Shown here: positions 17,032 through 35,403 of the stretch, in pieces | Layout: each line of letters starts with the position of its first letter | Numbering within the stretch: the first letter of the stretch is position 1 | Assembly: GCA_944367465.1 (NCBI GenBank) | Contig: CALVWO010000001.1 | Span: 6,758 to 70,757, forward strand | DNA: 64,000 bases | Origin: an uncultured Clostridia bacterium | GTDB lineage: Bacteria > Bacillota > Clostridia > Christensenellales > Borkfalkiaceae | Direction: 5' to 3' | Notes under the pieces: model-generated | Database searches by the model: none | Told to the model about the DNA's origin: nothing | What the model saw: only the letters and a program-made list of their open reading frames with translations | Made by a program: the position numbers and the translations under genes

Positions 17032-17467
17032 TGGTCGTTTTTTTTCTTTTTTTCAGCAAATTGAAATATATAGCATAATTCACATTTCCCCAATTTTCCC
17101 CAATCACCGAAAATCCGTTTTTGCTCCCGCACCTTTCCTTGGGTGCGGTTTTGATTTTCTGCGCCGGCACCGCGCCCTGGAAGAACCGCGGCGCGGCGGG
17201 CGGCGCCGCTCCCCTCTCTTCCTGATCGGCGCCATAGGGATAACCGCTTGCAGGACATTCCGCGACCCTCGGGCGCAGTCCTGATCTATCCGCTTGCGCG
17301 GGCGCGCCCGCGCCGTGCTGCAAATCCAAGCCGCCCGCCGATCGGACGATTCCGGGGGAACGCAGCGAGCACATAACACGCCCTGCGGGCGGCTTCCGAT
17401 CTTTCCTTCGTACGGACGGGGGCGGAGCGCCGTCCTATGATTACAGAATACTTAGATACTATACTTA

Positions 17468-18871: not shown

Positions 18872-19264
18872 TTACGAAAGTATTCTGCGGAGCGTTTGTT
18901 CGACGTCGGCGCGATACGCGCTTTGCAAGCGATAGACTGCCGACTGATCTTCAAACCGTTCCGCTACTTCCGCGACCCTCTCCGCGATCCATTGCACCGC
19001 GTCCGCATAACTCGTTTTGCCGCTGAACTCCACTTCTCGAAAATAAGCTTCGGGATCGATAGTCTCGCCGCATACTTTCCGCACGAAGAACTCCGTTTTT
19101 ACCTCGTCTATCGTGCTTTGGATGCGAATCTGATATCCGACATGCTCATACCAAAGCGATATCCATGTTTCAAACCTCTGCCCGTTGAACGTCCAATTAT
19201 GGTTGTTCCTGTCCACCGTCTTGATAATCTGCCTCGTGAGCTTCGCCCTTGCCTTTTCCGTCAT
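18872..19264 (-). CDS. Hypothetical protein (element)
   Basis: 130-aa ORF co-directional with and upstream of the rep-like gene. No recognisable motif. Confidence 0.5.
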   Translation of the reverse strand: MTEKARAKLTRQIIKTVDRNNHNWTFNGQRFETWISLWYEHVGYQIRIQSTIDEVKTEFFVRKVCGETIDPEAYFREVEFSGKTSYADAVQWIAERVAEVAERFEDQSAVYRLQSAYRADVEQTLRRILS

Positions 19265-19286
19265 ATTCGCATCTCCTTGTTTTATT

Positions 19287-19349
19287 CGTTTTGAATAATT
19301 ATATTACTCATTTTGAATAAAGTCAAGTATTATTTTTCATTTTGAATAA
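19287..19349 (+). promoter_or_regulatory. Three direct copies of (C)(A/G)TTTTGAATAA, putative operators in a divergent promoter region
   Basis: Copies at 19287-19298, 19309-19320 and 19338-19349. They lie between the minus-strand gene starting at 19264 and the plus-strand XRE gene. Confidence 0.55.
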
Positions 19350-20010: not shown

Positions 20011-20187
20011 CGTTCCCCTCCTTCCGGCGGCTCCACCGCCGTTTTTTGCCGATTTTTCCCGATTTTCGCCCCCTCCTTCGGGGCGGCTCGAAAATCCGCT
20101 ATTCAGCGGATTTTCGAGAAATTCCATGCGGTACCTTCGCTTTCTCAGCACCCGCGCGACAAAGCCGCGCGGGATTTAGTACCGCCG

Positions 20188-20338
20188 TCCGTTTATTTTC
20201 TGCGCGATTTTGAAAGTAATGACAAAATTTTCAAACGAATTTCGCCCCATCGGGCGAAATTCGCCTTCGGTTCGTCTCGAATTTGAAAATTTTTAATGTC
20301 ATTCCTTCTTTTCAAAATCGCGCAAATACAAATAAACG
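20188..20338. repeat. 151-nt long imperfect inverted repeat (compound hairpin) in the intergenic region after the Zot-like ATPase gene
   Basis: Hand pairing found these stems: 20188-97 with 20329-38 (10 bp), 20201-14 with 20309-22 (14 bp), 20217-22 with 20297-302 (6 bp), and 20223-34 with 20281-92 (12 bp). There is also an inner perfect 11-bp hairpin, GAATTTCGCCC, loop CATC, GGGCGAAATTC (20236-20261). Confidence 0.85.
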
Positions 20339-20390
20339 GATAACAACACCGCTGCGCCGTTGATGCAGCCATGCTCCGCGTTACGCAATC

Positions 20391-21671
20391 TTACGCCGTG
20401 CGCCGTTTGGGCTTGTCGTCCTGATCGCGGACGCGCACTTCATCTTCGCCCACCAAAAGCGTTTCCCACGTCGCAAGATCGATGGGTTTATCCTTCGCCT
20501 GATACATTTTCCACCACGTTCTGCCATCGTAGTCCGCCATACCGCGGCGCGGAAAAATGTATGTACCGCGATCGAACACGGTACCCTGCCCGTTTGCTCC
20601 GCCATGCGTATACGGAATTTTCCGAAATCCGATCGTTTCAAGATATTTCTCTCGATAAAAATACTTTTCACCGATATACTGCGCCTTTTCACGGCTGATT
20701 TTGCCCTCTTGCAGCCGCCGAAAATAGCGATTTTTCTGCTTTTGAAAGATCTTCCACGCAAAATTCGGTGCCATGATCGTTTCCTGCCGCTGCAAATTGA
20801 TGTTATAATCCGTCACGCCGCGTATCTGGACGGCGTTTCCCGTCTCCCGCTGATCGGTATTGATCAACGTAAAGTCGCCGAAATGACGGATAAAACGATA
20901 TGTTGCCTGTTCTGCGAGCGACATATCCCGCGAACGGGACGCGCCGCTATCCAATCCCGATTCGTCCTTAAAAAGCACGGAATATTCGGGTACCCTCGTG
21001 ACCTGCGCCTCTACCTCGGGCGTCATAACGTAACTGAACCGCCCGAGAAGGTCGCGGAGCGGGATCGTAGAGACAAGACATGGAATATACCGCGCCTCCC
21101 GTTCTGCGTAGTAAATGTAGCTCTCTTCCAATGCCGCAAACTTTTCGATGGCGTCCGTGTTGCCCTCGAGCTTCCAGCGCGTCACCATGCCGTGTTGCAG
21201 GAAATAGTCGCTTTTCAGCTTCGCCCAACGGCTTGCAGCCACGGCGATCGCGATGTTTGCGCCACCAGAAAACGTCTTGCCACACCCCGGAACGCCCGTA
21301 AGCGTTACCACGCGCGCCGATCCGAGATAGTCCATCGCCTGAACGCGCGCGACGTTCTCGTAATATTTGCATCGGACAACGTTGACGAATGTTTTGATGA
21401 AAAACACCAGCGCGACGATCTGCACCACCAATGCGACGAGCCACAATACCACGTCCGCAATGAAGGAGACTTCCCACCGCCAACGGAAAAAGATCGAGAC
21501 ATCGAGAAAGGAATAGAGAAGATTCTGCCAGCCGTGATAATAATCCTTCGTCACGAAGTACGCTGCCACAAAAACCACGGCGGGAATGTAGTTATACCGC
21601 CTCGTGTTCTTGTACGGCTCCAAAAGCCGGGCTTGTTGCCGTGCAAACCACTCATCGCTGTGCGTTTTCAT
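20391..21671 (-). CDS. Zot/pI-like P-loop NTPase with an N-terminal transmembrane region
   Basis: 426 aa from ATG 21671. Two or three TM helices at roughly residues 30-100. Motifs in order: GVPGCGKT, STIPLRD, VLFKDESG, FIRHFGDFTLINTDQ. This order parallels the Zot/pI motifs GxxGxGKT, TN.., hhhDE, HRxxGxDhhhhTQ. Confidence 0.55.
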   Translation of the reverse strand: MKTHSDEWFARQQARLLEPYKNTRRYNYIPAVVFVAAYFVTKDYYHGWQNLLYSFLDVSIFFRWRWEVSFIADVVLWLVALVVQIVALVFFIKTFVNVVRCKYYENVARVQAMDYLGSARVVTLTGVPGCGKTFSGGANIAIAVAASRWAKLKSDYFLQHGMVTRWKLEGNTDAIEKFAALEESYIYYAEREARYIPCLVSTIPLRDLLGRFSYVMTPEVEAQVTRVPEYSVLFKDESGLDSGASRSRDMSLAEQATYRFIRHFGDFTLINTDQRETGNAVQIRGVTDYNINLQRQETIMAPNFAWKIFQKQKNRYFRRLQEGKISREKAQYIGEKYFYREKYLETIGFRKIPYTHGGANGQGTVFDRGTYIFPRRGMADYDGRTWWKMYQAKDKPIDLATWETLLVGEDEVRVRDQDDKPKRRTA

Positions 21672-21811
21672 AACCTTACCCCGACGAATACCCCGAGAAG
21701 GAATATGATCGCCGCGCACACCGCGATCAATACGACGACGTTGACCTTACGATCTGCGATCTTTTCCTTCTTTTTCGGTTGTTCCTGTTCCTTCTGTTCC
21801 CTGGTTTCCAT
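21668..21811 (-). CDS. 47-aa single-TM peptide, translationally coupled (ATGA) to the Zot-like ATPase
   Basis: Hand translation gives METREQKEQEQPKKKEKIADRKVNVVVLIAVCAAIIFLLGVFVGVRL. It is below the ORF-track size cutoff and fills the gap between neighbouring genes exactly. Confidence 0.55.
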   Translation of the reverse strand: METREQKEQEQPKKKEKIADRKVNVVVLIAVCAAIIFLLGVFVGVRL

Positions 21812-21814
21812 ATA

Positions 21815-23029
21815 TCACAAGTATTTTTCGTAGCGGTCATCGATGGATGCGACAAATTCCTTGTCGTACTTATCGATGGGAACGCTCCAAGCGCTTTCCA
21901 ATGCGTTCCAATGCCATCCGCGTTTCTTCAACGCGTAAATGAGCTGCGGTTTCGGGCGTGTGGTGAACTTGATGAATACGCGCTCGCCCGCGTCGATCCG
22001 CTTGCGGTAAGCGTTCAGATTGTCCGTTTCGAGGAGTTTCTGCGCCTTCGGCGCGCCCTGATAGGTGCCCGCCTTGATCTTGTCGTAGATCTTCGCCGCC
22101 GTCGTGTTCTTGCGGAAACGGTATTTTTTATCCATTTCGTCGTAAAGTTCGACAAACCGCGCGGGATCGTACTGCGCGATGGGCGTCAAAGCGTTTGCGA
22201 TCGTCGTGGGCGATGTGAACCACCCGCGCGCGAGAGCTTCTTTGAAATGCTCTTCTGCCCGTTTCGCATCCTTTGCGCTCGTATCCTCATATTGACGCTT
22301 GCTTTCTCTAACGCTCTCTTCGATCTTTTCGAACCACGTCACAAAATCATGCGCGTCGCGGAGGATCTGTTCGCTCTTGTCGTATTTTTTCGCATTGTAT
22401 CGCGCCGGTCCCGCAACCGTGATGGGAACATGCTGTGCTTCGAGCGAAAGTTTACGCGTCCAACGCTTATGGATCTGATCGATGATCTGCTGTTTTTTGC
22501 TGTCTGCAATATCCCAGCCCAAAACCCGATTAACGTAACGCTGATAATCCCGCGCGGAATTATCGCCGCGATTGAACATGCTGTTCCCGTTTGCCGTTTC
22601 AATGTCCCGCCGGTTCAGCTCGGGGATCACGACGGTGCTTTTCTGTTCGGCGGGCTGTGTCTCCCGTTTCATCGGCGCGGTGAGTTCCGTTTTTCCCCCG
22701 CTCACGACCGGAACGAGCAAAGCAGATACTGCTTTCGGGAGCGCCGCCTGCGGCTTTCTCGGCTCCAAAATGGGGCGCATAGGAGCGGAGGCAGTCTTTT
22801 TCTTCGAGGACTTCTTGCCCTTTGACTTCCCTTCTTTCCGGCGAGCACGCTCCTCCTTGCGATACGCGTTCCACGCCGCCCATGCCTCGCGCGGGCTCAT
22901 ACCGGATGTACTCATCCCGACACCCTCCAAAAGCCCGTACGGACGGCGCCTTAGGTCGCTTTTGACTTGCAGCATGCGGAGCTGCGTCGCCTGCTCCTCT
23001 TTTTCCTCCTCTTTAATGACTTTTCTCAT
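21815..23029 (-). CDS. Hypothetical 404-aa protein: Lys-rich N-terminal region plus a helical C-terminal domain
   Basis: Start ATG at 23029 (MRKVIKEEEKEE), preceded by GGAGGGG; the track start at 23065 is TTG. Contains KEGKSKGKKSSKKK and C-terminal LKKRGWHWNALESAW. Confidence 0.6.
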   Translation of the reverse strand: MRKVIKEEEKEEQATQLRMLQVKSDLRRRPYGLLEGVGMSTSGMSPREAWAAWNAYRKEERARRKEGKSKGKKSSKKKTASAPMRPILEPRKPQAALPKAVSALLVPVVSGGKTELTAPMKRETQPAEQKSTVVIPELNRRDIETANGNSMFNRGDNSARDYQRYVNRVLGWDIADSKKQQIIDQIHKRWTRKLSLEAQHVPITVAGPARYNAKKYDKSEQILRDAHDFVTWFEKIEESVRESKRQYEDTSAKDAKRAEEHFKEALARGWFTSPTTIANALTPIAQYDPARFVELYDEMDKKYRFRKNTTAAKIYDKIKAGTYQGAPKAQKLLETDNLNAYRKRIDAGERVFIKFTTRPKPQLIYALKKRGWHWNALESAWSVPIDKYDKEFVASIDDRYEKYL

Positions 23030-23058
23030 GGATATGCCCCTCCGTTTTTCAAATTCTA

Positions 23059-23087
23059 TTGACAAACTTACAGAAATTGCGTATAAT
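23059..23087 (+). promoter_or_regulatory. Perfect sigma-70 consensus promoter (TTGACA, 17-nt spacer, TATAAT) pointing against the minus-strand operon
   Basis: TTGACA at 23059-23064, 17-nt spacer, TATAAT at 23082-23087. No credible plus-strand ORF lies downstream. Confidence 0.6.
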
Positions 23088-23178
23088 GCTTATAGAAAGG
23101 TTTGTGTCTCCCTCAATATCGGGGTTGCAGACGCGGGGCTATGGACGAATCAGGTTTCGGGCAGCCGCCTTTCTTTTT

Positions 23179-23514
23179 TTATTGCCCTTTTTTCCGCAGC
23201 CGTTCGATAAGTTCCCACACGACAGCTTTATCTTCCGCCGATAAGCCAAGACCATCCAGCTGTTTTCCGTATAATTTTGCCTGTTCCTGCGTAATTTTCG
23301 GGCGCACGTATGCCTGTTTTTCGTCCTTCGGGTTCGGATTCTTTTTCAAAGGAATATTATTGACTCCTTTCGTCCGTTTTCCGTGAGTCACGCCCAGACT
23401 TTGTAATTTACTGCCCGTCATGCCGAAAACATATTGCAAATGACCTTTGGCTTCTTTGGTGTTCAGCTTTCGGAACTCATCCAGATTTTTTGTTTTTTTC
23501 CTTCGCTTGCTCAT
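23179..23514 (-). CDS. Small highly basic protein (element)
   Basis: 111 aa, K/R-rich (MSKRRKKTKNLDEFRKL...). No motif recognised. Confidence 0.6.
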   Translation of the reverse strand: MSKRRKKTKNLDEFRKLNTKEAKGHLQYVFGMTGSKLQSLGVTHGKRTKGVNNIPLKKNPNPKDEKQAYVRPKITQEQAKLYGKQLDGLGLSAEDKAVVWELIERLRKKGQ

Positions 23515-23556
23515 TTTTGCATCCCCCCTGCCTTCATTTCCGCTGGCAGGGTTTTC

Positions 23557-23979
23557 CTATTTCTTTTTGGAGACAGGCTTTTCGGCGAATCTTGTGCGTT
23601 TTGCCTTAGCCTTTTTCGCTGCTTCCTCTCGGTTCATGGCGTCGTACTCTCGTGCGACAAGGTGCCGATACACCTCATGCCGCTTTTCCCCATCCCATTT
23701 TTTGACCTTATCTTTGCCATAGATCTTGCCGAGCATATCGCCCTGCGTAGCGATATTCATATAGGCTCCGTCCACGACCCGCAAAGCGTCCGTATAGTTG
23801 CTTCTCTTCCACTTCGGAATATCGTGCGACGCGCTGTTTGCGGCTTCTCTCATATTGTCGAGAGAGCTTTTCCCATAGCCGCGCACCTTGGGCGCAAAAC
23901 ACCAGCGGATCTCTTGGCGGATGATCTCCTTTGCCTTCTTCGTATTCGATCTTACGGGTTTACTTGCCATTTCCCTCAC
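23557..23979 (-). CDS. Small basic protein (element)
   Basis: 140 aa, K/R-rich at both ends (..SKPVRSNTKKAKE.. and ..AAKKAKAKRTRFAEKPVSKKK). Confidence 0.6.
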   Translation of the reverse strand: MREMASKPVRSNTKKAKEIIRQEIRWCFAPKVRGYGKSSLDNMREAANSASHDIPKWKRSNYTDALRVVDGAYMNIATQGDMLGKIYGKDKVKKWDGEKRHEVYRHLVAREYDAMNREEAAKKAKAKRTRFAEKPVSKKK

Positions 23980-24302
23980 CTCTTGCCTTCGATTTTTCTG
24001 ACGGTAATACCGCTTTTCGCAATCCTGCGCATATTCTCGGGGGTCTGATCGTAATACAGCCGCTCTTCTGTTCGGACATAGCGCCCGGGCGCGTTCTCGG
24101 ATGTCACACGCGTCACGACGATCTTATTCTTCGTCGCCCCCACGGCAGTAGCGTTCGCCAACGCCGTTCCGATGGGGACGGCTGCTTCGTTCCTCCGCTT
24201 CTTCGGGGCGGGTGCTGCACTGCCCTTCTTGTTCACGGGAACCGTAACGGCTTTTGCAGCCTTGCTCCCCACATTGCACTTTCTGCTCTTCGTCTTATCC
24301 AT
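23976..24302 (-). CDS. Small basic protein (element)
   Basis: 108 aa. Contains MDKTKSRKCNVGSKAAKAVTVPVNKKGSAAPAPKKRRNE. ATGA overlap with the next gene. Confidence 0.6.
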   Translation of the reverse strand: MDKTKSRKCNVGSKAAKAVTVPVNKKGSAAPAPKKRRNEAAVPIGTALANATAVGATKNKIVVTRVTSENAPGRYVRTEERLYYDQTPENMRRIAKSGITVRKIEGKR

Positions 24303-24332
24303 ATTTCACCTCTTATCCCTTTTCAGGGTTTT

Positions 24333-24710
24333 TTACTTTTTCTTGATCTCCAAAATTACTTTCACGACAATAAATACGACCATGATCACGGCAAATCCTA
24401 TGAGCGAATAGCCGATCCACGGCACGAACGGCGCGCAGACTGCATATTTTTCGCCCAGCCAACGGAATAGAACGTATACCGCGCCCGTGATCGCCGTCGC
24501 AATGATGGGCGCCACGATGGATACATTCCCAGTGCGGAACGCCTTCACGACCTTCACGATCACCATGACCGCCTCCACCGCAAGCAACGCGTACATAACA
24601 TAGTTGCACCACGGGAGCGCCGCCGTCAGATTCTCGTACTCCTTCGAAAGATATTCCAGCAATACGCGCACCGCAAGCGCCAACACCGTTAAACATACAG
24701 ACCAGATCAT
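24333..24710 (-). CDS. Polytopic small membrane protein (about 4 TM)
   Basis: 125 aa, almost entirely hydrophobic helices, ending in KKK. Starts 1 nt after the stop of the 652-aa gene. Confidence 0.7.
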   Translation of the reverse strand: MIWSVCLTVLALAVRVLLEYLSKEYENLTAALPWCNYVMYALLAVEAVMVIVKVVKAFRTGNVSIVAPIIATAITGAVYVLFRWLGEKYAVCAPFVPWIGYSLIGFAVIMVVFIVVKVILEIKKK

Positions 24711-24711
24711 C

Positions 24712-26670
24712 TTACTTCTCCTTTGCCGCTCCGAGCCCGATCCCTACAAGGCTCACCAATGCCACCCCGGCGAGGATCGCAACCAATGCCCAATCAAAAT
24801 TCCCCGAAATCACAGGAGGCGTATAAGGATTTATGATATCGATGGGGTCGGCTACGACGGGAATGACCGTTAAATTTCCACCATCATTAAACGTTAGTTG
24901 GATAATATCAAAATTCAGGAATATCGTCTGCTGGGCAATATAAGCATTATTTGTAGATGACTTTATACTATCATTTCCCAACGCACTTCTTTTTTCCCAT
25001 TCGCGCAACTGAGCTGATTCGCTGCGATAATCTGTTACTGCAAATCGAAAAAATACCAGCGTTTTTTCCTGTCTTTTCGCTTCGTTGTATGCCGCCCTGA
25101 TTTTTTCGACGTCTGCAACCTGACACATCAGATTGTCCGAAATATTTTCCGGTGTCCCTGCAAAATCCGATTCTTTCGGGAAATAGATCGGTGCAAATTC
25201 TCGTCCCGTTTCGTCTGGAATCTTTCCAAATAACGTATTCCACAGTCCAAAATCTTTTACATTATCCCACCATGAGGGATCCGTATCGTCCCATGAGACC
25301 ATTTCCTGAATATCGGCGTCGATATCGAAGTCATAGCGGGAAATTCCGTCAAAACCGCTTTGCACAATGCCACTTGCATTATTCACTTTGCGGCTCCCGT
25401 CGATATCCCGTTCGAACAAATCGGCGCTGATCGCCTTTTCTTTCACGTTCACTGTACCGTTTTCAAATGAGCGGTCATAGCTGTATATGTAATTTTCGAT
25501 AGCGTTCCGCATGATCCCGCCCTGAGATTGAATATCGGCATACGGGTCATACGAATCTATATCTACTCCATTGGTATTAAAAATTAAATATAATGCTTCC
25601 ATAGGAGTATCTACCGGATCTTCCGGATCATAAGTAGCATTCCATACAAACCCATCCATTTTGCTGCTCACATAGCTACCAAACGACCAAAGAATACTCT
25701 CGTCAAAATATCCTTCGCGTCCAACACCGTAACTCTGAAACCATTCAGATATCCACGGTAATTGTTTTCCAATATAGTTGCTAATCCCATTATAAAATGA
25801 ATCTTCACTTGTTATTAAAGCGGGCTTGAGCTTGAACTCGTACCATTCTGCCATAATACGTTGGAGTTTCCCGTACTCCTCGAAATATCGGTCAGGCACG
25901 GTAAAATACACGGTATCCAACTGATTTTGATGTCCTGAACCAAGAGAGGACGACATTGTCCTCCAAAATGTATGCTCTACATCGAGGCTGATCGTATCGA
26001 GCTTTTCCTCCGCGATTTGAAGCGTGCTTTCTGCCTCTTTATCCGCTCCGCAGCCCTTGCTGTATCCCGTGCAGCGGTATGTCCTGCCCTTCTCTTCGTT
26101 TGCCGAATTGGAATCCGTTGCGTTTGCATCGCCCGAAAACCAAAGCTGGATCCCCGCGATATCGTAGCGGCGTACGCCATCATGCGCGGCAGCATATACC
26201 TTTGCGCGGTCGTATGCGCCCGCGCTGTTCGTCAGCTTGAATTTATAGATCAGATGATCGTCCGTATAATCCAGGATCGTGATCGCGCAGTTTGCATACT
26301 CTGTCGGTTCGCCCTCCGTATCGTATGCCACCGCCATATTCACGACATTCGCGCCCGTACGGGAAGATACTTCCCGCCCCGTGGGGTTGTACACATAGAA
26401 ATAGATCCCGAAATAATCCTCCGCCACCGACGCGTCGCTGCTGTATGCGTACTCCATGAATCCCGCCTCGTCGATCAGGCGATGCCGCCCGTTCCCGTCT
26501 TTGGCATATACGGAGAGATCCACCGAGGCGAGATCCTGCTCGATTGTCGTCTGATCGTATTGTGTGAGCGCATCCGTGAGCGTGGCGGTTGCGGGCGCGG
26601 CGCCCACGCCGAACCCGATCCCCGCCGATAAAATACACGCCGATGCAGTTTTGAAAATTTGTTTTATCAT
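24712..26670 (-). CDS. Large exported protein with an N-terminal signal peptide and a C-terminal TM anchor (spike/adsorption-protein-like topology)
   Basis: 652 aa. N-terminus MIKQIFKTASACILSAGIGFGVGAAPATA. C-terminus NFDWALVAILAGVALVSLVGIGLGAAKEK. Rich in D/Y/W/N; no family recognised. Confidence 0.65.
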   Translation of the reverse strand: MIKQIFKTASACILSAGIGFGVGAAPATATLTDALTQYDQTTIEQDLASVDLSVYAKDGNGRHRLIDEAGFMEYAYSSDASVAEDYFGIYFYVYNPTGREVSSRTGANVVNMAVAYDTEGEPTEYANCAITILDYTDDHLIYKFKLTNSAGAYDRAKVYAAAHDGVRRYDIAGIQLWFSGDANATDSNSANEEKGRTYRCTGYSKGCGADKEAESTLQIAEEKLDTISLDVEHTFWRTMSSSLGSGHQNQLDTVYFTVPDRYFEEYGKLQRIMAEWYEFKLKPALITSEDSFYNGISNYIGKQLPWISEWFQSYGVGREGYFDESILWSFGSYVSSKMDGFVWNATYDPEDPVDTPMEALYLIFNTNGVDIDSYDPYADIQSQGGIMRNAIENYIYSYDRSFENGTVNVKEKAISADLFERDIDGSRKVNNASGIVQSGFDGISRYDFDIDADIQEMVSWDDTDPSWWDNVKDFGLWNTLFGKIPDETGREFAPIYFPKESDFAGTPENISDNLMCQVADVEKIRAAYNEAKRQEKTLVFFRFAVTDYRSESAQLREWEKRSALGNDSIKSSTNNAYIAQQTIFLNFDIIQLTFNDGGNLTVIPVVADPIDIINPYTPPVISGNFDWALVAILAGVALVSLVGIGLGAAKEK

Positions 26671-27704
26671 ATTTCATTCAGCATTTCAAAAAGTGTATTG
26701 ATCTCTGCCCGCGTCAATCCGTCCTGACGATTGCTTTCGGCATAATCCAAAATTGCTTTTATTGCATTCACGGTCGGATGCTGACGATCCGTTTCCGACA
26801 ACTCCGGATACCGCTCGTTTCCGATTTCTATCAACATTCTAAATTGAGCCATTGCTATCCCATCGGGATCCCCGGTTACAACAGCAAGTTCATCATCCGA
26901 CAAATCGGAATATATTTTCAAGATGCCGGTCATCAATTCCTTGATCGAGGAGACAAACTCCTGCGCATCTTGCGACATTGCAGGCACTTCCGGTTCCTCG
27001 GGTTCCTCGGGTTCCTCAGGTTCCTCAGGTTCCTCCGGCTCTTCCGGTTCCTCGGGCTCTTCCGGTTCTTCCGGCTCCTGCCCGCTGCCGTCTCCGAAAA
27101 TGATATGATCCGGATCGAGAATAATACTCTCCGGCGCGGTGGAGAACGTGACCGTAATGCTGTACCCGTTCGCTGCCGTCACCGTCATGGCGAACTTGTC
27201 TGCGACCGTGTCCGAGACACCGTCCTCAAGCGTGACCGTGTTCCCCTTTGCCCCAGCGATGATCTCATCCAGCGCACCGTATTCCACTGTAAATCCCGTC
27301 GCCGCGCGCGTGATCGTAAATCCCGCCGTGAAATCATCTCCCACAACGTTGCTCCACTTATACGGTTCCGCCCCGAGCGTGAACCCGAAATCCTCTGCCG
27401 CCGCGCGGGCGGTCATCGTCACGGTATAATCCGTACCAAAATCCGCTCCCACGGCGTATGTGATTCCGGAGGAAAGTCCCGTCACGCCGCCGTCGCCGTA
27501 TTTCATGCCGTCCAGCTCGATATAATAATTCCCCGTGATCGTGCCGGGATCCTTTCCGGGGGTCTCCGGGTCTTCCTTCTGCCACGGGAACTTCGTGAAT
27601 CCGTCCGTATAATACCATGCCGCATAGATCCCCCCTGCCAATGCCCCAAGCATTACAAGGATCAGCACGATGAGAAAAAATTTCCTGCCGCCGTTCTTTG
27701 CCAT
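26667..27704 (-). CDS. N-terminally anchored membrane protein with a (PEE)n linker
   Basis: 345 aa. N-terminus MAKNGGRKFFLIVLILVMLGALAGGIYAAWYY. Contains EPEEPEEPEEPEEPEEPEEPEEPEEPE and an alpha-helical C-terminal domain. Confidence 0.65.
   Translation of the reverse strand: MAKNGGRKFFLIVLILVMLGALAGGIYAAWYYTDGFTKFPWQKEDPETPGKDPGTITGNYYIELDGMKYGDGGVTGLSSGITYAVGADFGTDYTVTMTARAAAEDFGFTLGAEPYKWSNVVGDDFTAGFTITRAATGFTVEYGALDEIIAGAKGNTVTLEDGVSDTVADKFAMTVTAANGYSITVTFSTAPESIILDPDHIIFGDGSGQEPEEPEEPEEPEEPEEPEEPEEPEEPEEPEVPAMSQDAQEFVSSIKELMTGILKIYSDLSDDELAVVTGDPDGIAMAQFRMLIEIGNERYPELSETDRQHPTVNAIKAILDYAESNRQDGLTRAEINTLFEMLNEI
26987..27079 (-). repeat. About 10 tandem 9-bp units encoding the (PEE)n tract
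   Basis: The plus strand reads TTCCTCGGG, TTCCTCAGG and CTCTTCCGG variants in tandem. The repeat is coding low-complexity sequence. Confidence 0.85.
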
Positions 27705-27767
27705 CTTTCCACCTCTCGTCTTTTCGTCTGGAGCGGGACTTCCGGCGCCCGCTATACCTTCCTTGTC

Positions 27768-28814
27768 TTAAAAAACCAAAGAGCTATCCGAAAGAGAAAC
27801 ATCCTCGACAGGAGTATAAAGATGCCCTACGGAATACGACATCGTTTTTGTGAATTTATCCGAACTCATGATAACGCCGTCATATTTCAGATTAAATGAA
27901 ACGCTTACATAAATTGCATCCGAGTTATCCGGAATATTCAGAACGTTATATGCCGTGGAATCATATTCAAAAGTGAACAAACGTGTATGTAAATCTTCAA
28001 AACTGCAATTCGCATAATAGCCGCCGTTCTTTTCAAAAATATGTGATTCCTCGATTACAGGCCTCTCATAGTAAGCAGCTATATCAGAATGTGCCTCAAG
28101 AAATTCCTCTGTTAATCCAACTTCAAATCTGGTCACCTCGATTTCAGGATCAACAGTCCCGTCGGTATATTTAAAATCCCGAAACTCAAATGTTGTCGGA
28201 TAACCAGGCGAATCGGTAAATCCAAAAAGAACCTTATCAAAACCGGGACCATCAGTCCTTGAAAATCCAAAATTTAACTCGGAAGTAATGCGTTTCATAT
28301 AATCCACAAAACAATTTGCTTTTATTTCAAGATTTTCATCGCACGCAACAGTTACAACAATGGGCTCACTAAATGCTCCTTTGCACTCTACGTTTGCCGT
28401 ACGCGAACCTTCAGCCGTTGGAGTAACCGTCACATAGTTCGTGACCGATTTACCCGTTGCCCACGATGAAGATGGATTAGAAAACGCCACCGTCCAAACC
28501 ACCGCTTGATTTTCTGCATCTGAAGGCGTGATCGTCGCCGTAATCTGATATGCGCTTTCCGCCATGGGAGAAATGCCATTTTCCTCGTAGTCCTCCGCGG
28601 CGATCTTCGTCGACATCATTTCAATGCCGTTGCTTTCGCCTTCACCGATAATCGCTCCGCCCGTTTCGGGAGTTTCTGTCTGTTCTCCGCTGCCGAACCA
28701 ATTCCGGGCATGCGCGAACCAGCCGACCAGCCCACCGCCGACACCGATCGCAAGTGCCAAAAGAATACAGCCGATCGCCTTCACCGCCGTCTTTCCGTTA
28801 CTTTTCGTTTTCAT
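27768..28814 (-). CDS. N-terminally anchored membrane protein with a bacterial Ig-like (Big_2-type) segment
   Basis: 348 aa. N-terminus MKTKSNGKTAVKAIGCILLALAIGVGGGLVGWFAHARNWF. Contains YQITATITPSDAENQAVVWTVAFSNP...VTVTPTAEGSRTANVECKG. Confidence 0.6.
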   Translation of the reverse strand: MKTKSNGKTAVKAIGCILLALAIGVGGGLVGWFAHARNWFGSGEQTETPETGGAIIGEGESNGIEMMSTKIAAEDYEENGISPMAESAYQITATITPSDAENQAVVWTVAFSNPSSSWATGKSVTNYVTVTPTAEGSRTANVECKGAFSEPIVVTVACDENLEIKANCFVDYMKRITSELNFGFSRTDGPGFDKVLFGFTDSPGYPTTFEFRDFKYTDGTVDPEIEVTRFEVGLTEEFLEAHSDIAAYYERPVIEESHIFEKNGGYYANCSFEDLHTRLFTFEYDSTAYNVLNIPDNSDAIYVSVSFNLKYDGVIMSSDKFTKTMSYSVGHLYTPVEDVSLSDSSLVF

Positions 28815-28840
28815 CTTCCAGATCCTCGCTTATGATTGAT

Positions 28841-29173
28841 TCATTCCGATCTCACGGCATCACACGCAGCTTCGTCCGCAGGTTCCTGTCCGTCGTCCGG
28901 CGTCTGTTGTTCGCCCTCTTCCCCGTCCGGCGTTTCGTCTGGGAGCTGCTCTTCCTGCCCGTCGTCCGGCGTCTGCTGTTCGCCCTCTTCCCCGTCCGGT
29001 GTTTCGTCCGGGAGCTGTTCTTCCTGCTGCTCTCCACCGATCCCGAACCGCGTCCAATCCCGATACCAGTTCGTACAGAACCCCAGAATCACCGCGATCA
29101 TTGCCGCAAGAATCAGGATCCCGAGTACAATCAGAACCCCGTTCCCGCCGTTCGTCTTTCTGCCTTGTGCCAT
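28841..29173 (-). CDS. N-terminally anchored small acidic-repeat protein
   Basis: 110 aa. N-terminus MAQGRKTNGGNGVLIVLGILILAAMIAVILGFCTNWYRDW. A 23-aa unit, EEQLPDETPDGEEGEQQTPDDGQ, occurs twice. Confidence 0.65.
   Translation of the reverse strand: MAQGRKTNGGNGVLIVLGILILAAMIAVILGFCTNWYRDWTRFGIGGEQQEEQLPDETPDGEEGEQQTPDDGQEEQLPDETPDGEEGEQQTPDDGQEPADEAACDAVRSE
28883..29026 (-). repeat. 69-bp tandem duplication (2.1 copies, 5 mismatches) inside the acidic-repeat gene
   Basis: Unit 1 is 28883-28951 and unit 2 is 28952-29020, aligned by hand. A third unit starts with TTCCTG. Confidence 0.85.
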
Positions 29174-29243
29174 TGTTCTCTCCTTCCCGTCTGATACGGT
29201 TCTTATATTTTTCCGCTATGCGCCTCTTTTCCCCTGCGCGTTC

Positions 29244-29348
29244 CTATACGATCCATCCCAGGATGACCGCCGCGTATGCAATGCCGCACGCTGCCAGCAC
29301 CGCACATACGCCCACCCACTTCATTACCGCTCTCCACGTCTCTCGCAT
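29244..29348 (-). CDS. Very small single-TM peptide (start uncertain: 34 or 26 aa)
   Basis: MRETWRAVMKWVGVCAVLAACGIAYAAVILGWIV. The 62-aa track version overlaps the upstream gene by 47 nt, so an internal ATG (29348 or 29324) is preferred. Confidence 0.4.
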   Translation of the reverse strand: MRETWRAVMKWVGVCAVLAACGIAYAAVILGWIV

Positions 29349-29385
29349 CTCCTTCAGGGCGGGATTCCGCTCATATCTCACCTCC

Positions 29386-29613
29386 TCACAGATACTTCCC
29401 TGCGAGCCGCAGCAGCTCGCGCGCCGCTTCAAAATTTACTTTGATGTTCCCGCAGTCATCGCTGATCGCCTCGTTCACCGCTGCCGCAAGTTCGCTCAAC
29501 GCCTCGTCCAACCGCTTGGCGGTCGTCACAAGCTGCGGACGCTCCTTTTGGAAATTCACGAACGCGATAAACTCCTCCTGCCCCATCTCTACCGTCACGC
29601 GCATGCCGTTCAT
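29386..29613 (-). CDS. Small hypothetical protein, paralog of 30115-30345
   Basis: 75 aa from ATG 29613, with an ATGA overlap on the upstream stop. N-terminus MNGMRVTVEMGQEEFIAFVNF resembles MITVQMTREEYERFQAF. Confidence 0.55.
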   Translation of the reverse strand: MNGMRVTVEMGQEEFIAFVNFQKERPQLVTTAKRLDEALSELAAAVNEAISDDCGNIKVNFEAARELLRLAGKYL

Positions 29614-29879
29614 CCGCTCACCTCTCCCCGCATGCGGGGATCTGCCTCTGCGGATCCGCACGCCTGCAAGATCTCTCCGTCCCCGTTTCCGGGGATAACG
29701 TTCGGAAGCCGATACAGCAGATACACATAGCGCCGATCTCTCATGAATGCGGCACCGTGTGCATGCAATACCGTAATTGTCTGCGTCAGCTTGTCGTACC
29801 GTAAAACGGGAAACCCATCGGGCAGCGCCGCGATATCCTTTTCGTCAAGTTCCCACAATAAAATGCTGATCGTTTTCAT
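29610..29879 (-). CDS. Small hypothetical protein (element)
   Basis: 89-aa ORF with 4-nt overlaps at both ends with its neighbours. Confidence 0.5.
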   Translation of the reverse strand: MKTISILLWELDEKDIAALPDGFPVLRYDKLTQTITVLHAHGAAFMRDRRYVYLLYRLPNVIPGNGDGEILQACGSAEADPRMRGEVSG

Positions 29880-30103
29880 CGTCCGCCGAGACCTCCGTCT
29901 ACAGCGACCTGGAATATGATGGAGTATGCTCCGTTCATGATATCCGCTACTTCCGGCTCACCCTTCTGGGCGGCGAGCGCCGCAAGATGTACAAGCACCA
30001 ACGACGCATGCGCCAGATCCGTGCTCCCGAACCCGATCCTTCTCACCTGTTCCATCCGCAATTCCGTACTCGGTATGTCCCGCAGCATATCTGTTACTTT
30101 CAT
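29876..30103 (-). CDS. Small hypothetical protein (element)
   Basis: 75 aa, MKVTDMLRDIPSTELRMEQV..., preceded by GGGGGCGAAGAA. This is the 3' part of a 210-aa track ORF; the upstream part of that ORF overlaps better ORFs. Confidence 0.5.
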   Translation of the reverse strand: MKVTDMLRDIPSTELRMEQVRRIGFGSTDLAHASLVLVHLAALAAQKGEPEVADIMNGAYSIIFQVAVDGGLGGR

Positions 30104-30114
30104 TTCTTCGCCCC

Positions 30115-30345
30115 CTATGCAAGTATCTCCGCGGCGCAATCGATCGCACGGCGCGCCGCCACCGTATTTTTCAATGAGATCCCTTCCAGATCGGAACTCA
30201 TCGCCGCCAATACCGCTTCGGAGAGCTCCTCCGCCTGCTTGCGAAAGAGCTTGTCCTGCGTTCGGATGCTCTCGATCGTCCGTTCCGCACCGCGGAACGC
30301 CTGGAACCGCTCGTACTCCTCTCTTGTCATTTGCACCGTGATCAT
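30115..30345 (-). CDS. Small hypothetical protein, paralog of 29386-29613
   Basis: 76 aa, MITVQMTREEYERFQAFRGAE...AARRAIDCAAEILA. Confidence 0.55.
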   Translation of the reverse strand: MITVQMTREEYERFQAFRGAERTIESIRTQDKLFRKQAEELSEAVLAAMSSDLEGISLKNTVAARRAIDCAAEILA

Positions 30346-30536
30346 TGCTTTCCTCCCGTCTGCGAACGGTTAATTTCGATTTCCGCATATACCCGCTCGT
30401 ACTTGCTGTTCCCGCGGTTGGCATACGGGTCGGAAACGGAAAGAATTTCGATTTCGCCTCGGCGCTCACAGGCATCCAAAAATTTTTTCGCCTGCTCGTT
30501 CTCTTCACGCGTGCCTTGAATCCTGATTTTTACCAT
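30342..30536 (-). CDS. Small hypothetical protein (element)
   Basis: 64 aa, MVKIRIQGTREENEQAKKFLDACERRGEIEILSVSDPYANRGNSKYERVYAEIEI. ATGA overlap with the next gene. Confidence 0.55.
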   Translation of the reverse strand: MVKIRIQGTREENEQAKKFLDACERRGEIEILSVSDPYANRGNSKYERVYAEIEINRSQTGGKQ

Positions 30537-30701
30537 GTTGCTTCTCCTATTTTCTCACCTTGCGGCGGTTTTCCCGACTTCTCCTGAACGGCTGCCTCCG
30601 AACTGCGGCGGCAGCCGCCCATAGGAGAATGCTTTCGCCGATGCGGAGGTGCGCCCTCCCGTCAAGGGGTAACGCCGCCGCTTGCGGACATCGGCATATC
30701 T

Positions 30702-31520
30702 TCAAGAACCGTCGCTCAGGCGATTCGTTCCGCCTTCCGGCAGGACATCTGCCGCGGTCAGTTCCGTTCCCTGCGTTCCTTCGTCACGAACGTACAGCGC
30801 CCACTCGCGCCCGAATTTCTCTTCGAGACGGCGGGCAGCGTTCCATCGCTTGATCTCCTCCTCGTTTTGCCATGCGCAGACGCAGATCTCGCCGTTCTCC
30901 CTGAGCCCGCTGCCGCCGCAGAACGGGCATTTTTGTACGGGCTCGAATATCCTGACGTCGATCCCCGCCCGCTCGCACGCCTTCTTGCGCTCGCCGAGAA
31001 TCTGCATATATTCACGGATCAGCTTGCTCACGCGCACATGATCTTCTGCGGCTTCCGCATCGGCAAGCGCTGCCTCCGCCTCTTTTTTTGCCTTTTCGTT
31101 TCCTGCGAACGCGGGATAGGTTTCCGCCAGCTTTATGCGCGCCGCCGCAGCGTCGCGTTTGCGCTTGCTTTCCATCCCCTTGTAGTAGGCTGTCACTTCC
31201 GATTTCAGAAGCGGGATCTCCTCCGCCTTCCCGGGCATGACCTCCTGCGCCCGACAGAATGAAAAATGAGCGGAAAGGCGCTCCAACGTGACGGGGCGCT
31301 CCGTAAAGATGTTCTTCTTCCCGCCGAGCGTCTCGACCGCGTACAGCTCCCCTCTCCGCTCAGAGTAGTCGCATGCTGAAATTGTCACTTTGCCGATCTC
31401 TTCTTCGGCTGTTCCGTAAAGGGCATACACCGCGCCGACACCATAGTTAAAGTACAGCCGTCCATCGTTCCCCACGATAGGCTGTAACCCACTGCTTTTC
31501 TTCGCTCGCGATGCTGCCAT
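30702..31520 (-). CDS. Hypothetical protein with a coiled A/E/K-rich region and a CPFCGGSG..C.C zinc ribbon
   Basis: 272 aa. Contains QKCPFCGGSGLRENGEICVC, the same ribbon type as the C-terminus of the rep-like protein at 17699-18742. Confidence 0.55.
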   Translation of the reverse strand: MAASRAKKSSGLQPIVGNDGRLYFNYGVGAVYALYGTAEEEIGKVTISACDYSERRGELYAVETLGGKKNIFTERPVTLERLSAHFSFCRAQEVMPGKAEEIPLLKSEVTAYYKGMESKRKRDAAAARIKLAETYPAFAGNEKAKKEAEAALADAEAAEDHVRVSKLIREYMQILGERKKACERAGIDVRIFEPVQKCPFCGGSGLRENGEICVCAWQNEEEIKRWNAARRLEEKFGREWALYVRDEGTQGTELTAADVLPEGGTNRLSDGS

Positions 31521-31534
31521 ACTTCGCTCCCCTA

Positions 31535-31780
31535 TTATTCTTGGAAATTCGCTGCCCGAAGAGTTCTGACGATCTCCTCGAAGCTCTCGCGGACGGGGAT
31601 CCCGACCCTGATCCTTCCGTTCCTGGCTCGCTCCATTTGGATAAAAACAGCTCCTTCTAATTCGACAACCGAGATGATCTCCCTGATGGCGATCATGTGC
31701 GGAATATCTGCCCGCCCCTTTTTACTGATTTGATGAACTAAGATAAATCCCGCGCGTTCTGCACACTCTCCCGAAAGCAT
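31535..31780 (-). CDS. Small hypothetical protein, first gene of the long minus-strand operon
   Basis: 81-aa ORF preceded by AAGGAGGAAAAA. Confidence 0.55.
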   Translation of the reverse strand: MLSGECAERAGFILVHQISKKGRADIPHMIAIREIISVVELEGAVFIQMERARNGRIRVGIPVRESFEEIVRTLRAANFQE

Positions 31781-32576: not shown

Positions 32577-32639
32577 ATTTGCATTTTTCTTGAGATTATA
32601 TCATGCATTTTTGGATTTGTCAACACAAAAAATGCAAAT
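32577..32639. promoter_or_regulatory. Three copies (two direct, one inverted) of a TTGCATTTTT-like motif, putative operators
   Basis: ATTTGCATTTTT at 32577-88, TCATGCATTTTT at 32601-12, and AAAAAATGCAAAT (inverted) at 32626-39. They lie between the divergent genes at 32488(-) and 32669(+). Confidence 0.5.
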
Positions 32640-32668: not shown

Positions 32669-33022
32669 ATGAGATTGAAAGATCTTCGCGAAGAACATAA
32701 TCTTACTCAGAAAGAACTTGGCGCTCTTGTAGGCGTTGCGCAGTCTAATATCAACCGTTGGGAAAATGGAACCGTCTGCCCTTCCGCAGATTTTGTTGTT
32801 AAACTTGCTGATTATTTCGATGTCTCAACCGACTATCTTCTCGGGCGTACGGACGAACTCGGCGCAGTCATCACCCCTTTCCCCCCTTCAGATGATTACA
32901 CAGATGAGGAGAAAAAGCTGATCGCGGACTACCGCGAGCTCACGCCCCCTTTGAAACGTATGATCCAGGAGACCCTCAAAACATGGAAAAGCTCAGAGAT
33001 CAACACGAAAAAACTTTCTTGA
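32669..33022 (+). CDS. XRE-family HTH regulator (repressor-like)
   Basis: 117 aa. Contains MRLKDLREEHNLTQKELGALVGVAQSNINRWENGTVCP. RBS GAGGAGG. Confidence 0.85.
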   Translation: MRLKDLREEHNLTQKELGALVGVAQSNINRWENGTVCPSADFVVKLADYFDVSTDYLLGRTDELGAVITPFPPSDDYTDEEKKLIADYRELTPPLKRMIQETLKTWKSSEINTKKLS

Positions 33023-33324
33023 TGAAATCGGATCCCGTTCTGCTTGCGCTTGTCGCGCTTTTCTCCCGCTGCGAGCATGTGGAACGAGCCGCACTCTTCG
33101 GCTCCCGTGCCCGCGGCGACTTTTCTGAACGGAGCGATTACGATATTGCCGTGTTCGGAACGATTCCCGAAAGCGCCAAACTGCAGCTGCGCAGCGCCTG
33201 CCGCGAAGGGCTCCCCACCCTGCACAAGATCGATCTTATCTTTGCAGATGAGGTCACGGACGAAAAATTTATGCAAAGCATTCTGAAGGAGGGCGTTACG
33301 TTCTATGACAAAACTGCAAAATAA
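33022..33324 (+). CDS. Nucleotidyltransferase-domain protein (MNT-type, HI0073-like)
   Basis: Contains GSRARGDFSERSDYDIAVFG (the GS-x10-DxD NTase motif). Start ATG at 33022 overlaps the XRE stop. Confidence 0.8.
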   Translation: MKSDPVLLALVALFSRCEHVERAALFGSRARGDFSERSDYDIAVFGTIPESAKLQLRSACREGLPTLHKIDLIFADEVTDEKFMQSILKEGVTFYDKTAK

Positions 33325-35340: not shown

Positions 35341-35403
35341 CGACCGTTTTTTTCTTCTTTTCAGCGAATTGAAATATATAGCATCATTGAAATTATTTTT
35401 TGC

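Follow-up and report, generated by a model that had tools for sequence, protein, structure and literature searches.

The window analyzed here, a stretch of 64,000 nucleotides (nt) from an uncultured Clostridia bacterium, contains an integrative, excising element of ~18 kb that belongs to a common, unannotated family and carries a phage-type lysogeny switch. The element encodes a conserved morphogenesis-like module built around a membrane ATPase that is distantly similar to the Zot proteins and to ORF3 of Acholeplasma phage L2. With a confidence that falls just short of even, we read this island as a virus genome in its integrated state; the virus, temperate, non-tailed, and unclassified, would infect a gut Clostridia host related to the Christensenellaceae, and its particle would be made at the membrane and would exit without lysis. 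We favor a plasmavirus-like particle, with a nucleoprotein core in a protein-studded membrane, and place a very long filament a close second; the sequence does not decide between a filament, a vesicle of the plasmavirus kind, and export by a non-viral device.

The island (~18.3 kb, positions 16939-35361) is delimited by a 114-nt direct repeat, the copies of which are 95% identical and spaced by 18,309 nt (repeat search). The repeat starts in the anticodon loop of a tRNA-Leu(CAA) gene, the sole match in an Rfam scan, and it gives the island sharper boundaries than those stated in an earlier note, made by reading the letters alone. The left flank is the host polA gene, and the right flank is a DUF1848 gene (Pfam). 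Twenty related loci were compared (loci are cited below by L numbers). Among the loci compared, the 114-nt repeat was found elsewhere only in L011 and L012, again at tRNA-Leu, and other lineages adjoin different tRNA genes. Near-identical elements lie beside polA, as in the window, in L031, L032, and L035, and at another chromosomal locus in L033. The L034 scaffold (18,073 nt; from ERZ28616088) is a circular permutation of the element: the initiator gene continues into the arm of integrase, toxin-antitoxin, and repressor genes, and the last 137 nt of the scaffold repeat positions 402-538, which gives a period of 17,450 nt. The same junction of rep and int genes is present in L005, a 20.5-kb contig of another lineage (from ERR13988717), the sibling of which, L004, sits inside a 46-kb contig of a metagenome-assembled genome (MAG).

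The ATPase has 27 word-indexed relatives, all unnamed proteins from Clostridia MAGs and gut metagenomes, and an exhaustive profile search yielded 313 ATPase-family clusters at E <= 1e-3. Carriers of the family in GTDB are Christensenellaceae or unclassified Clostridia, and the assembly collection has 140 blocks that list the window's ATPase protein in identical form. The related elements measure ~10 to 20 kb and share, across the 20 loci, a recurrent core: an integrase, an XRE repressor, a Zn-ribbon protein and an initiator of the types of the window's 272-aa and 347-aa proteins, one to four paralogous N-terminally anchored acidic proteins, a large protein (~550 to 740 aa) with a signal peptide and a C-terminal anchor, a basic-tailed protein of 60 to 78 aa with two transmembrane (TM) segments directly after it, one to three very basic soluble proteins, and the ATPase gene followed by a hairpin and a gene for a small winged-helix-turn-helix protein. 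The synteny of this module is kept across lineages in which the ATPase is only 34 to 56% identical, and the smallest member, L009 (~10 kb), consists of the core module and little besides.

In our analysis, the ATPase represents a divergent branch of the pI/Zot-like ATPases, one that probably includes L2 ORF3 as well. By the threshold of PF05707 itself, it lies outside that family, and its TM segment and ATPase domain come in the opposite order to those of pI and Zot. In the family alignment (profile A1), Walker A reads G-x-PG-x-GKT and Walker B DE-x-G, and an R-x-x-RH-F-G...N-T-[DE]-Q segment is also present; G126, G131, K132, D236, E237, R259/R262, and Q274 are invariant columns, and the motifs listed in the earlier note are real and fall on such columns. 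The protein has an ASCE (additional strand, catalytic glutamate) P-loop core in which, as in Zot and pI, the Walker A and Walker B motifs are followed by RHxG...Q. By eye, the RHxG...Q motif is shared with M13 pI (FLHARKLGWDIIFLVQD) and with L2 ORF3 (LLRHQG..LLSQ), and hhalign aligned this segment of a second profile (A2) to M13 pI with an E value of 1.4e-3 but a probability of just 18%. Otherwise, comparisons of the ATPase profiles with the proteins of M13 and phage B5, by hidden Markov model (HMM) search and hhalign, were negative, and A1 and A2 gave only generic P-loop matches among PDB sequences. In its AlphaFold2 (AF2) model (pLDDT 79), the window ATPase consists of N-terminal helices, the ASCE core, and a C-terminal soluble, beta-rich domain; the hydrophobic helices precede the P-loop (TM segment at residues ~74 to 92; AF2 helices 19-41 and 68-113), whereas Zot and pI have an N-terminal ATPase, one TM segment, and an extracytoplasmic C-terminal domain.

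Zot is the only named family that is recurrently matched among 35 distant homologues of the ATPase, six of which match it weakly (best E values, 3.1e-5 for PF05707 and 1.6e-7 for phrog_197, "Zot-like toxin"). P0129 matches Zot positions 83-155, the segment that hhalign also aligns to M13 pI, at 15.9 bits against a PF05707 cut-off of 20.3. When the model was compared by Foldseek with the viral models of BFVD, eight matches passed 1e-3. The best structural match is the unnamed A0A894JLK1 (E value, 1.4e-6; TM-score, 0.61 on the target); L2 ORF3 (2.2e-5; TM-scores, 0.29/0.38) and two inovirus "Zonular occludens toxin" models (1.5e-4 and 4.4e-4) are among the others, and RecA was matched as well, at 1.8e-4. 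A0A894JLK4, with an accession neighboring that of the best match, was also matched. Aligned by hhalign with the ATPase family profile, a profile of 21 L2-ORF3 relatives gave an E value of 4.9e-5 and a probability of 68% over 142 columns, from Walker A to RHxG. Among PDB folds, the Zot N-domain (2R2A) is one of the top five matches (E value, 0.015; TM-score, 0.40 to 0.45 on the target), and HerA appears in the list at scores near those of Zot; the P-loop region also has a weak match of the IstB/AAA type. The parallel with Zot and pI drawn in the earlier note is supported by the motifs, by the Zot and L2 ORF3 models in BFVD, and by 6 of the 35 distant relatives, but not by the Pfam score of the window protein, which is below threshold, nor by its N-terminal TM segment. 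The Zot leaning of the wider family also shows in the gene neighborhoods of distant relatives, which are compact and inovirus-like (described below).

The ATPase gene belongs to a train of genes in which, from 31780 down to 20391, the minus strand carries all open reading frames (ORFs) with a ribosome-binding site (RBS), and coding sequence makes up 94% of the stretch. Eighteen genes are well supported by a Shine-Dalgarno sequence, and two short ORFs (30547-30705 and 29203-29337) are doubtful, so that the 19 tightly coupled minus-strand ORFs of the earlier note were a fair count. Five of the six ATGA overlaps that it reported are exact (at 30342, 29876, 29610, 26667, and 21668), but positions 23976-79 read GTGA, and the gene called there more likely starts with the ATG at 23970, leaving a 5-nt gap. 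Among at least eight TM proteins claimed for the train, the anchored proteins of 110, 348, and 345 aa, the 652-aa protein, the 125-aa protein with four TM segments, and the ATPase stand, while one TM peptide of fewer than 50 aa was confirmed rather than two. The three very basic small proteins (108, 137, and 111 aa; isoelectric points, 10.1 to 10.7) were found as described, and a basic protein of 404 aa can be added to them.

The 652-aa protein begins with a signal-like helix and ends with an anchor helix at residues 627-651 (hydropathy and AF2). Its model, based on 37 homologues, is confident (pLDDT 86; pTM, 0.83) and mostly beta, with a C-terminal TM helix; its family comprises >407 clusters at 90% identity, all unannotated, and the family profile (A3) matched no PDB sequence. 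Lacking such a match and a BFVD fold match, the protein is not recognizable as pIII, as an envelope protein of L2, as a spike of pleolipoviruses, or as a tail fiber. The 125-aa protein that follows is a tandem duplication of the conserved two-TM, basic-tailed module, which in L007 is fused to the C terminus of the large protein. The 108-aa and 111-aa basic families are kept beside the ATPase in most lineages. No match of the 404-aa protein was found in Pfam, PHROGs, or NCBIfam.

In all lineages of the family, the large protein, the small TM protein, and the ATPase form a conserved triad, which stands in the same order in M13, phage B5, and L2. Together with the L007 fusion and the hairpin, it bears out the echo of the gIII-gVI-gI-hairpin order of Ff phages that the earlier note had pointed to. 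The hairpin (fold, -79.5 kcal/mol; z = -12 versus shuffles) has a short GC hairpin beside it (20156-20176). A hairpin just downstream of the ATPase gene was found in 14 of the 15 related loci tested, with z scores of -6 to -18 (L015 is the one without it); the family hairpins are 100 to 160 nt long, and their position is kept while their sequences are unrelated between lineages. In three close relatives, 64 pairs are kept, few are lost, and there is one compensatory change; this is too little variation for covariation, and the argument for the hairpin therefore rests on positional conservation across lineages. The structure is too long for an ordinary terminator, and by analogy a function in packaging or as an origin appears plausible, since its position resembles that of the Ff intergenic region, with its packaging signal and origins, and that of L2 ori1, just after ORF3-ORF4.

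Profile searches of all ORFs against Pfam, PHROGs, and NCBIfam revealed no terminase, portal, capsid, tail, holin, or endolysin and no Rep or HUH match; the sole tail- or decoration-like matches were Ig-like segments at E values of ~0.003 or weaker. None of the anchored, basic, TM, and ATPase proteins of the train had a significant match in these three collections, nor had its small upstream genes. Pfam and NCBIfam gave no relaxase, VirB4, VirD4/TcpA, FtsK (gamma-domain), or cell-wall hydrolase match in the island ORFs. The earlier note, which by eye had seen neither tailed-phage hallmarks nor relaxase, VirB4/VirD4/FtsK, or HUH Rep signatures, is in agreement with these searches. For the Caudoviricetes, hallmarks were lacking at the level of profiles, and folds were modeled for two proteins only, the ATPase and the 652-aa protein. 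Searches with the whole island (megablast) and with the ATPase and 652-aa protein (tblastn) gave no match in collections of phages (50,697 records) and plasmids (72,556). A tblastn search of the phage collection with the distant ATPase P0050 gave no match, and the one weak match of another, P0040, to MT837170 was rejected as unrelated, as that record has no family HMM match. IMG/VR (2.9 million contigs) contributed a single contig, IMGVR_UViG_3300027374_000002 (L029, 8220-14626), with relatives of the 348-, 345-, and 652-aa proteins: after a 742-aa protein come a TM protein of 97 aa and an N-anchored protein of 696 aa, and no ORF of L029 matches the ATPase profile or has a canonical Walker A. 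Scans of IMG/VR with A1 and two single distant members returned nothing. The element does not correspond to a known, characterized prophage type in these collections.

The lysogeny module of integrase and XRE repressor inferred in the earlier note was borne out by Pfam, which recovers a tyrosine integrase and a cI-like repressor, and by a consensus promoter opposite the repressor gene that faces the gene train. Between the repressor and integrase genes, an MNT/HEPN pair (Polbeta nucleotidyltransferase plus NTase_sub_bind) is present, which L006 and L034 also carry. Copies that are 95 to 99% identical elsewhere differ by exchanged cassettes, both of ectodomain genes and of the integrase. For the ectodomain genes (27007-28924 compared with L001, L031, and L034), proteins of, e.g., 122, 343, and 266 aa replace those of 110, 348, and 345 aa, an exchange that looks like the swapping of receptor-binding (host-recognition) modules. 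In L034 (14512-16362), L001 (14955-15550), and L033, an identical ATPase is accompanied by a different 352-aa integrase, a cassette with a 34-aa ORF, and another chromosomal site, which is a swap of the integration module. L031, L032, and L035 carry a DNA cytosine methylase gene (~12813-13913) between the 130-aa gene and the initiator gene that is absent from the window. By analogy, cassette swapping and a variable methylase are the modular behavior of temperate phages.

Table 1. Features of the island and its integration site (positions in the 64,000-nt window)
Feature	Position	Strand	Basis or remark
tRNA-Leu(CAA), integration target	16907..16993	+	ARAGORN; Rfam tRNA
attL, left copy of the 114-nt repeat	16939..17052		Repeat search, 95% identity; sequence inspected
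Putative replication initiator, 347 aa, winged helix-turn-helix (HTH) plus C-terminal Zn ribbon	17699..18742	-	Pfam HTH_36 9e-12, weak DnaD_N
130-aa protein, upstream partner of the initiator	18872..19264	-	ORF with RBS; homologues in L004 to L006
Three 22-nt direct repeats (TTATTCAAAATGA core), candidate operators/iterons	19277..19349		Repeat search; sequence
XRE-type HTH protein, 69 aa	19360..19569	+	Translation; missing from the earlier note's list
XRE-type HTH protein, 78 aa	19529..19765	-	Pfam HTH_31 1e-14
Winged-HTH protein, 71 aa	19795..20010	-	Pfam HTH_24; start at 20010 with GGAGG RBS
Long imperfect hairpin, ~64 bp; candidate packaging signal, origin, or strong terminator	20185..20345		DNA fold
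Membrane-anchored P-loop ATPase, 426 aa, distant Zot/pI-like, similar to L2 ORF3	20391..21671	-	Alignment, AF2, Foldseek, hhalign
Single-TM peptide, 47 aa	21668..21811	-	Translationally coupled to the ATPase
Basic soluble protein, 404 aa, isoelectric point 9.8	21815..23029	-	Homologues in 4 lineages
Three very basic soluble proteins (111, 137, 108 aa), candidate DNA-condensing	23179..24302	-	Charge
4-TM protein, 125 aa	24333..24710	-	Tandem duplication of the 2-TM module
Acidic secreted protein with C-terminal anchor, 652 aa; candidate adsorption/fusion protein	24712..26670	-	AF2 model
Three N-anchored acidic ectodomain proteins (345, 348, 110 aa)	26667..29173	-	Hydropathy/charge; paralogous family
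Five small soluble proteins (75, 89, 75, 76, 64 aa), translationally coupled	29386..30536	-	ORFs
272-aa protein: N-terminal domain, coiled coil, CxxC...CxC Zn ribbon	30702..31520	-	Alignment; in every lineage
First gene of the train, 81 aa	31535..31780	-	ORF with RBS
Extended -10 promoter, perfect 12/12	32595..32623	-	Faces the gene train, divergent from the repressor gene
cI-like XRE repressor, 117 aa	32669..33022	+	Pfam HTH_3 1e-18, weak Phage_CI_repr
MNT/HEPN-type toxin-antitoxin pair (nucleotidyltransferase + NTase_sub_bind)	32983..33709	+	Pfam
Tyrosine integrase, 377 aa	33984..35117	+	Pfam Phage_int_SAM_3, Phage_int_M, Phage_integrase
attR, right copy of the 114-nt repeat	35248..35361		Repeat search; sequence inspected

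The remaining features of the island are listed in Table 1. Among PHROGs, the 347-aa initiator matches replication initiation, O-like, and DnaD-like families (4e-7 to 9e-6), and hhalign relates it to L2 ORF11 with a probability of 89%. The 22-nt repeats overlap an 11/12 promoter (19326-19298) between the divergent XRE and rep genes; with the divergent XRE gene they are a candidate second regulatory switch or, alternatively, candidate iterons at the origin. Equivalent divergent XRE pairs were also called in L004 and L031, and the 71-aa winged-HTH gene, directly downstream of the hairpin, is shared by nearly all of the related loci. A coiled coil followed by a C-terminal CxxC-x(8-12)-CxC Zn ribbon is common to the 272-aa and 347-aa proteins and resembles the N-terminal region of the DnaC-like PRK06835 proteins (NCBIfam E values, 1e-3 and 4e-8). 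The 272-aa protein was considered as a hidden Rep for rolling-circle replication (RCR) and ruled out, since its alignment has neither the HUH nor the catalytic Tyr pattern. In the gene train, the 64-aa protein has a weak DUF3970 match (Pfam), and the 47-aa TM peptide is restricted to near-identical elements. The 9-nt periodic repeats at 26965-27079 correspond to a (PEE)n linker in the 345-aa protein, and a 69-nt tandem duplication (28883-29020; 93% identical) corresponds to a repeated acidic segment in the 110-aa protein. The plus-strand GC skew averages -0.17 across the operon (19000-32000), compared with an average of ~-0.05 in same-strand genes of the host (polA and 36392-44184), and the AT skew is likewise stronger there; this may be the trace of a single-stranded phase or merely reflect codon and protein composition.

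From these features, a life cycle can be proposed, the first step of which is mostly shown: the tyrosine integrase puts the element into tRNA-Leu, and the cI-like repressor stands opposite the consensus promoter of one coupled operon. Excision would give a circle of ~17.5 to 18.3 kb, which, judging from profile matches, would be replicated by the winged-HTH initiator of the O/DnaD type. At the membrane, the N-anchored acidic ectodomain proteins, the 652-aa protein, and its small two-TM partner would be inserted, while three or four very basic soluble proteins would condense the DNA. The anchored P-loop ATPase could then couple ATP hydrolysis to the movement or packaging of DNA at the assembly site, with the long hairpin beside its gene as a likely recognition element. 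As no lysis genes were found, release would be chronic. The dsDNA-type initiator like L2 ORF11, the basic proteins, the anchored ectodomains, and tRNA integration all point toward a plasmavirus-like vesicle, as do the one-strand coupled operon and an ATPase topology like that in L2. The earlier note had likewise allowed for a filament, a membrane-containing virion, and a non-viral device.

A number of results weigh against this reading. The window ATPase matches no Pfam or PHROG family, PF05707 included, and against the PDB Foldseek found no match below 1e-3, with RecA, spastin, Zot 2R2A, STIV2 B204, and FtsK scoring alike. The scores of the L2 link are moderate (TM-scores, 0.29 to 0.38; hhalign probability, 68%), and the L2 ORF3 family itself lacks a Pfam Zot match. 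No particle protein was recognized by homology, and the 652-aa model is unmatched among BFVD viral models, those of L2 and pleolipovirus proteins included (best E value, 0.012, with a negligible TM-score); the absence of any structural protein with a recognizable relative weighs against both a vesicle and a filament, as does the presumed cell wall of the hosts. Clostridia presumably are walled, and we know of no precedent for an enveloped particle budding through a cell wall. Finally, near-absence from IMG/VR could mean that the family is not viral.

The first alternative, which we consider unlikely, is a filamentous phage of giant size and inovirus-like kind (from the Tubulavirales, broadly understood), in which the pI-like ATPase would extrude ssDNA through the membrane, the 652-aa protein would act as pIII, the two-TM protein as pVI, the hairpin as packaging signal or minus-strand origin, and a small hydrophobic, basic-tailed protein as coat. 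The module of the Tubulavirales, including the monoderm-infecting Paulinoviridae such as phage B5, has the same Walker A/B and RHxG...Q ATPase, the same order of acidic signal-peptide and C-anchored protein, small polytopic protein, ATPase, and long hairpin, and the same chronic, lysis-free logic. In addition to this conserved gene order, the fusion in L007, the Zot leanings of the ATPase family, and the lack of detected lysis genes, a filament would be consistent with a strand skew threefold that of same-strand host genes. It would also agree with the gene surroundings of the distant ATPases: their cassettes are compact and include small single-TM ORFs, an OB-like protein, and, in one case, a gene for an RCR Rep_1. 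In L026, P0038 is followed by this Rep_1 gene and an integrase gene. In L027, P0040 comes after an int/XRE arm, a 929-aa protein, three single-TM ORFs of 41 to 53 aa, and a 207-aa anchored protein, and the basic C-terminal tail of one of the small ORFs can be likened to a Pf3-type coat protein. In L028, the genes ahead of P0050 encode an OB-like protein of 92 aa, a basic protein of 74 aa, a 719-aa protein that has a signal peptide and an anchor, and a TM protein of 84 aa. The wider family thus resides in inovirus-like cassettes, of which the window's subfamily would be a derivative, enlarged and with another module for replication.

Nevertheless, the element departs from the Inoviridae in Rep, size, ATPase topology, and Pfam score and probably in coat proteins. 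No RCR or HUH Rep occurs in the subfamily, where the sole replication-like gene encodes the O/DnaD-type initiator; Rep_1 was seen only beside the distant homologue in L026. The 18.3 kb between the attachment sites are about twice the Inoviridae range, given as 5.5 to 10.6 kb in the ICTV account (PMC8491893). Short structural proteins of 30 to 90 aa with a single TM segment are among the criteria for inoviruses (Roux et al. 2019; PMC6813254); here, only the 47-aa peptide of near-identical copies is of this kind, and the conserved 60- to 78-aa protein has two TM segments. The latter has a basic tail after a hydrophobic helix, like major coat proteins, but its duplication in the window and fusion to the large protein elsewhere suit a pVI-like partner more than a major coat. 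Moreover, inoviruses have nothing that corresponds to the three to five large anchored ectodomain proteins or to the three or four soluble basic ones, and the TM segment lies N-terminal to the ATPase domain and not C-terminal, as in pI and Zot.

Distinctly unlikely is a non-viral integrative element with a new contact-dependent or vesicle-mediated device for DNA export, the closest analogues of which would be FtsK-type transfer in actinomycetes and archaeal plasmid vesicles. The ATPase would then be a DNA translocase, the hairpin an oriT-like site, and the ectodomain proteins adhesins or mating-pair proteins. An integrase, an initiator, and circular forms suit an integrative and conjugative element or a plasmid equally, and a module rich in membrane and surface proteins and a family nearly absent from IMG/VR would also be in keeping with export. 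ASCE ATPases with an N-terminal TM segment include coupling proteins and FtsK, and FtsK and HerA score near Zot in the PDB comparison. Nevertheless, the profile searches detected no relaxase, VirB4, VirD4/TcpA, FtsK gamma-domain, or cell-wall hydrolase in the island, none of the 72,556 plasmids carries a counterpart, and the nearest named relatives of the ATPase, Zot and L2 ORF3, are viral. A cI-type switch with a single long late operon, basic DNA-condensing proteins, and receptor-like cassette swapping are, furthermore, typical of viruses. Last, a satellite or decaying island that makes no particle of its own, with surface genes as lysogenic-conversion cargo and the ATPase as an unrelated NTPase (e.g., for defense, or IstB-like), would agree with the toxin-antitoxin pair, the methylases of relatives, the weak IstB/AAA-type match, and the lack of a recognizable capsid but is very improbable given intact, tightly coupled ORFs, a whole module that stays syntenic and conserved at 34 to 56% ATPase identity, an identical ATPase in 140 assembly blocks, circular forms, and a minimal 10-kb relative, L009, that retains exactly this module and little else. 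A satellite of the phage-inducible chromosomal island type was set aside because minimal relatives retain the entire membrane/ATPase module.

To our knowledge, hardly any viruses that are non-tailed and non-lytic have been described from the Gram-positive anaerobes of the gut. If the viral reading is true, the elements would form an undescribed family of viruses. They are common in metagenomes and yet have no annotation, no Pfam or PHROG family, and no counterpart among phage genomes, so that these recurring temperate elements are taken for host DNA. Should the particles be real, their structural proteins would be new, as the confident 652-aa model without a viral match illustrates, and non-lytic release through the presumed cell wall of Clostridia would need an explanation. 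The strongest form of the proposal is that gut bacteria of the class Clostridia here have their first enveloped viruses of a plasmavirus-like kind and that, as the ATPase may show, Plasmaviridae and Tubulavirales have an ancestral export module (large anchored protein, small TM protein, and ATPase) in common. It would define a new family of viruses or a higher taxon, overlooked by present pipelines for virus detection, and is possible, if on balance doubtful. The likeness of the ATPase both to L2 ORF3 and to Zot/pI offers a testable link for the orphan family Plasmaviridae.

Among known systems, L2 of the Plasmaviridae and the inovirus morphogenesis module come closest to the element. Pleolipoviruses have a conserved block of genes for a spike with signal peptide and C-terminal anchor, small membrane proteins, and a putative NTPase, on integrable genomes of 7 to 17 kb, and are released without lysis (PMC7547991). 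They and the archaeal plasmid vesicles are alike to our element in overall logic only; their hosts are archaea, and no match to them in sequence or fold was found, the 652-aa model being unmatched in BFVD. Plasmaviruses integrate at tRNA genes, have translationally coupled ORFs on one strand, and produce without lysis a nucleoprotein core in a proteinaceous lipid vesicle (PMC12662186). The window element agrees with them in its att site at tRNA-Leu, a permuted circular relative, a coupled one-strand operon, and the absence of a lysis-gene match, and at 18 kb it is larger. A dsDNA genome is suggested only by the type of initiator.

Compared with L2 itself, the element is likewise temperate and integrated at a tRNA gene via a tyrosine recombinase, and the circular genomes are of comparable size (12 kb in L2, 10 to 20 kb in our family). 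As in L2 (PMC12662186), its morphogenetic ORFs share a single strand and are translationally coupled, and lysis genes are lacking; its winged-HTH initiator resembles L2 ORF11. The order of genes is also the same: membrane and secreted proteins, a large protein, a small two-TM protein, a P-loop ATPase with an N-terminal hydrophobic part, and a non-coding region for replication or structure. L2 differs in its wall-less mollicute host, the hosts here being of the class Clostridia, and in lacking the three or four soluble basic proteins and the several paralogous N-anchored ectodomain proteins found here. Hosts of this class presumably are walled. The likeness of the ATPase to L2 ORF3 is confined to the core, from Walker A to RHxG, and, apart from this likeness and that of the initiator to ORF11, comparisons of the island families with all L2 proteins, envelope and large proteins included, were negative (HMM and hhalign). 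L2 ORF3 (L13696, 2278-3216; 37.2 kDa, "unknown") is a P-loop ATPase with a hydrophobic N terminus, LPGGGKS, LILDEF, and the RHxG...Q motif given above, and it is preceded by a 591-aa protein and an 81-aa two-TM protein in a triad like gIII-gVI-gI. This triad may be an unreported link of plasmaviruses to other viruses. According to the 2018 ICTV profile (PMC12662186), an integrase is all that plasmaviruses have in common with other viruses; the ATPase link, if confirmed, would alter this. Weighing these systems together, we would place the element with viruses that depend on a pI/Zot-class ATPase, are non-lytic, and assemble at the membrane, with a real chance of its being more.

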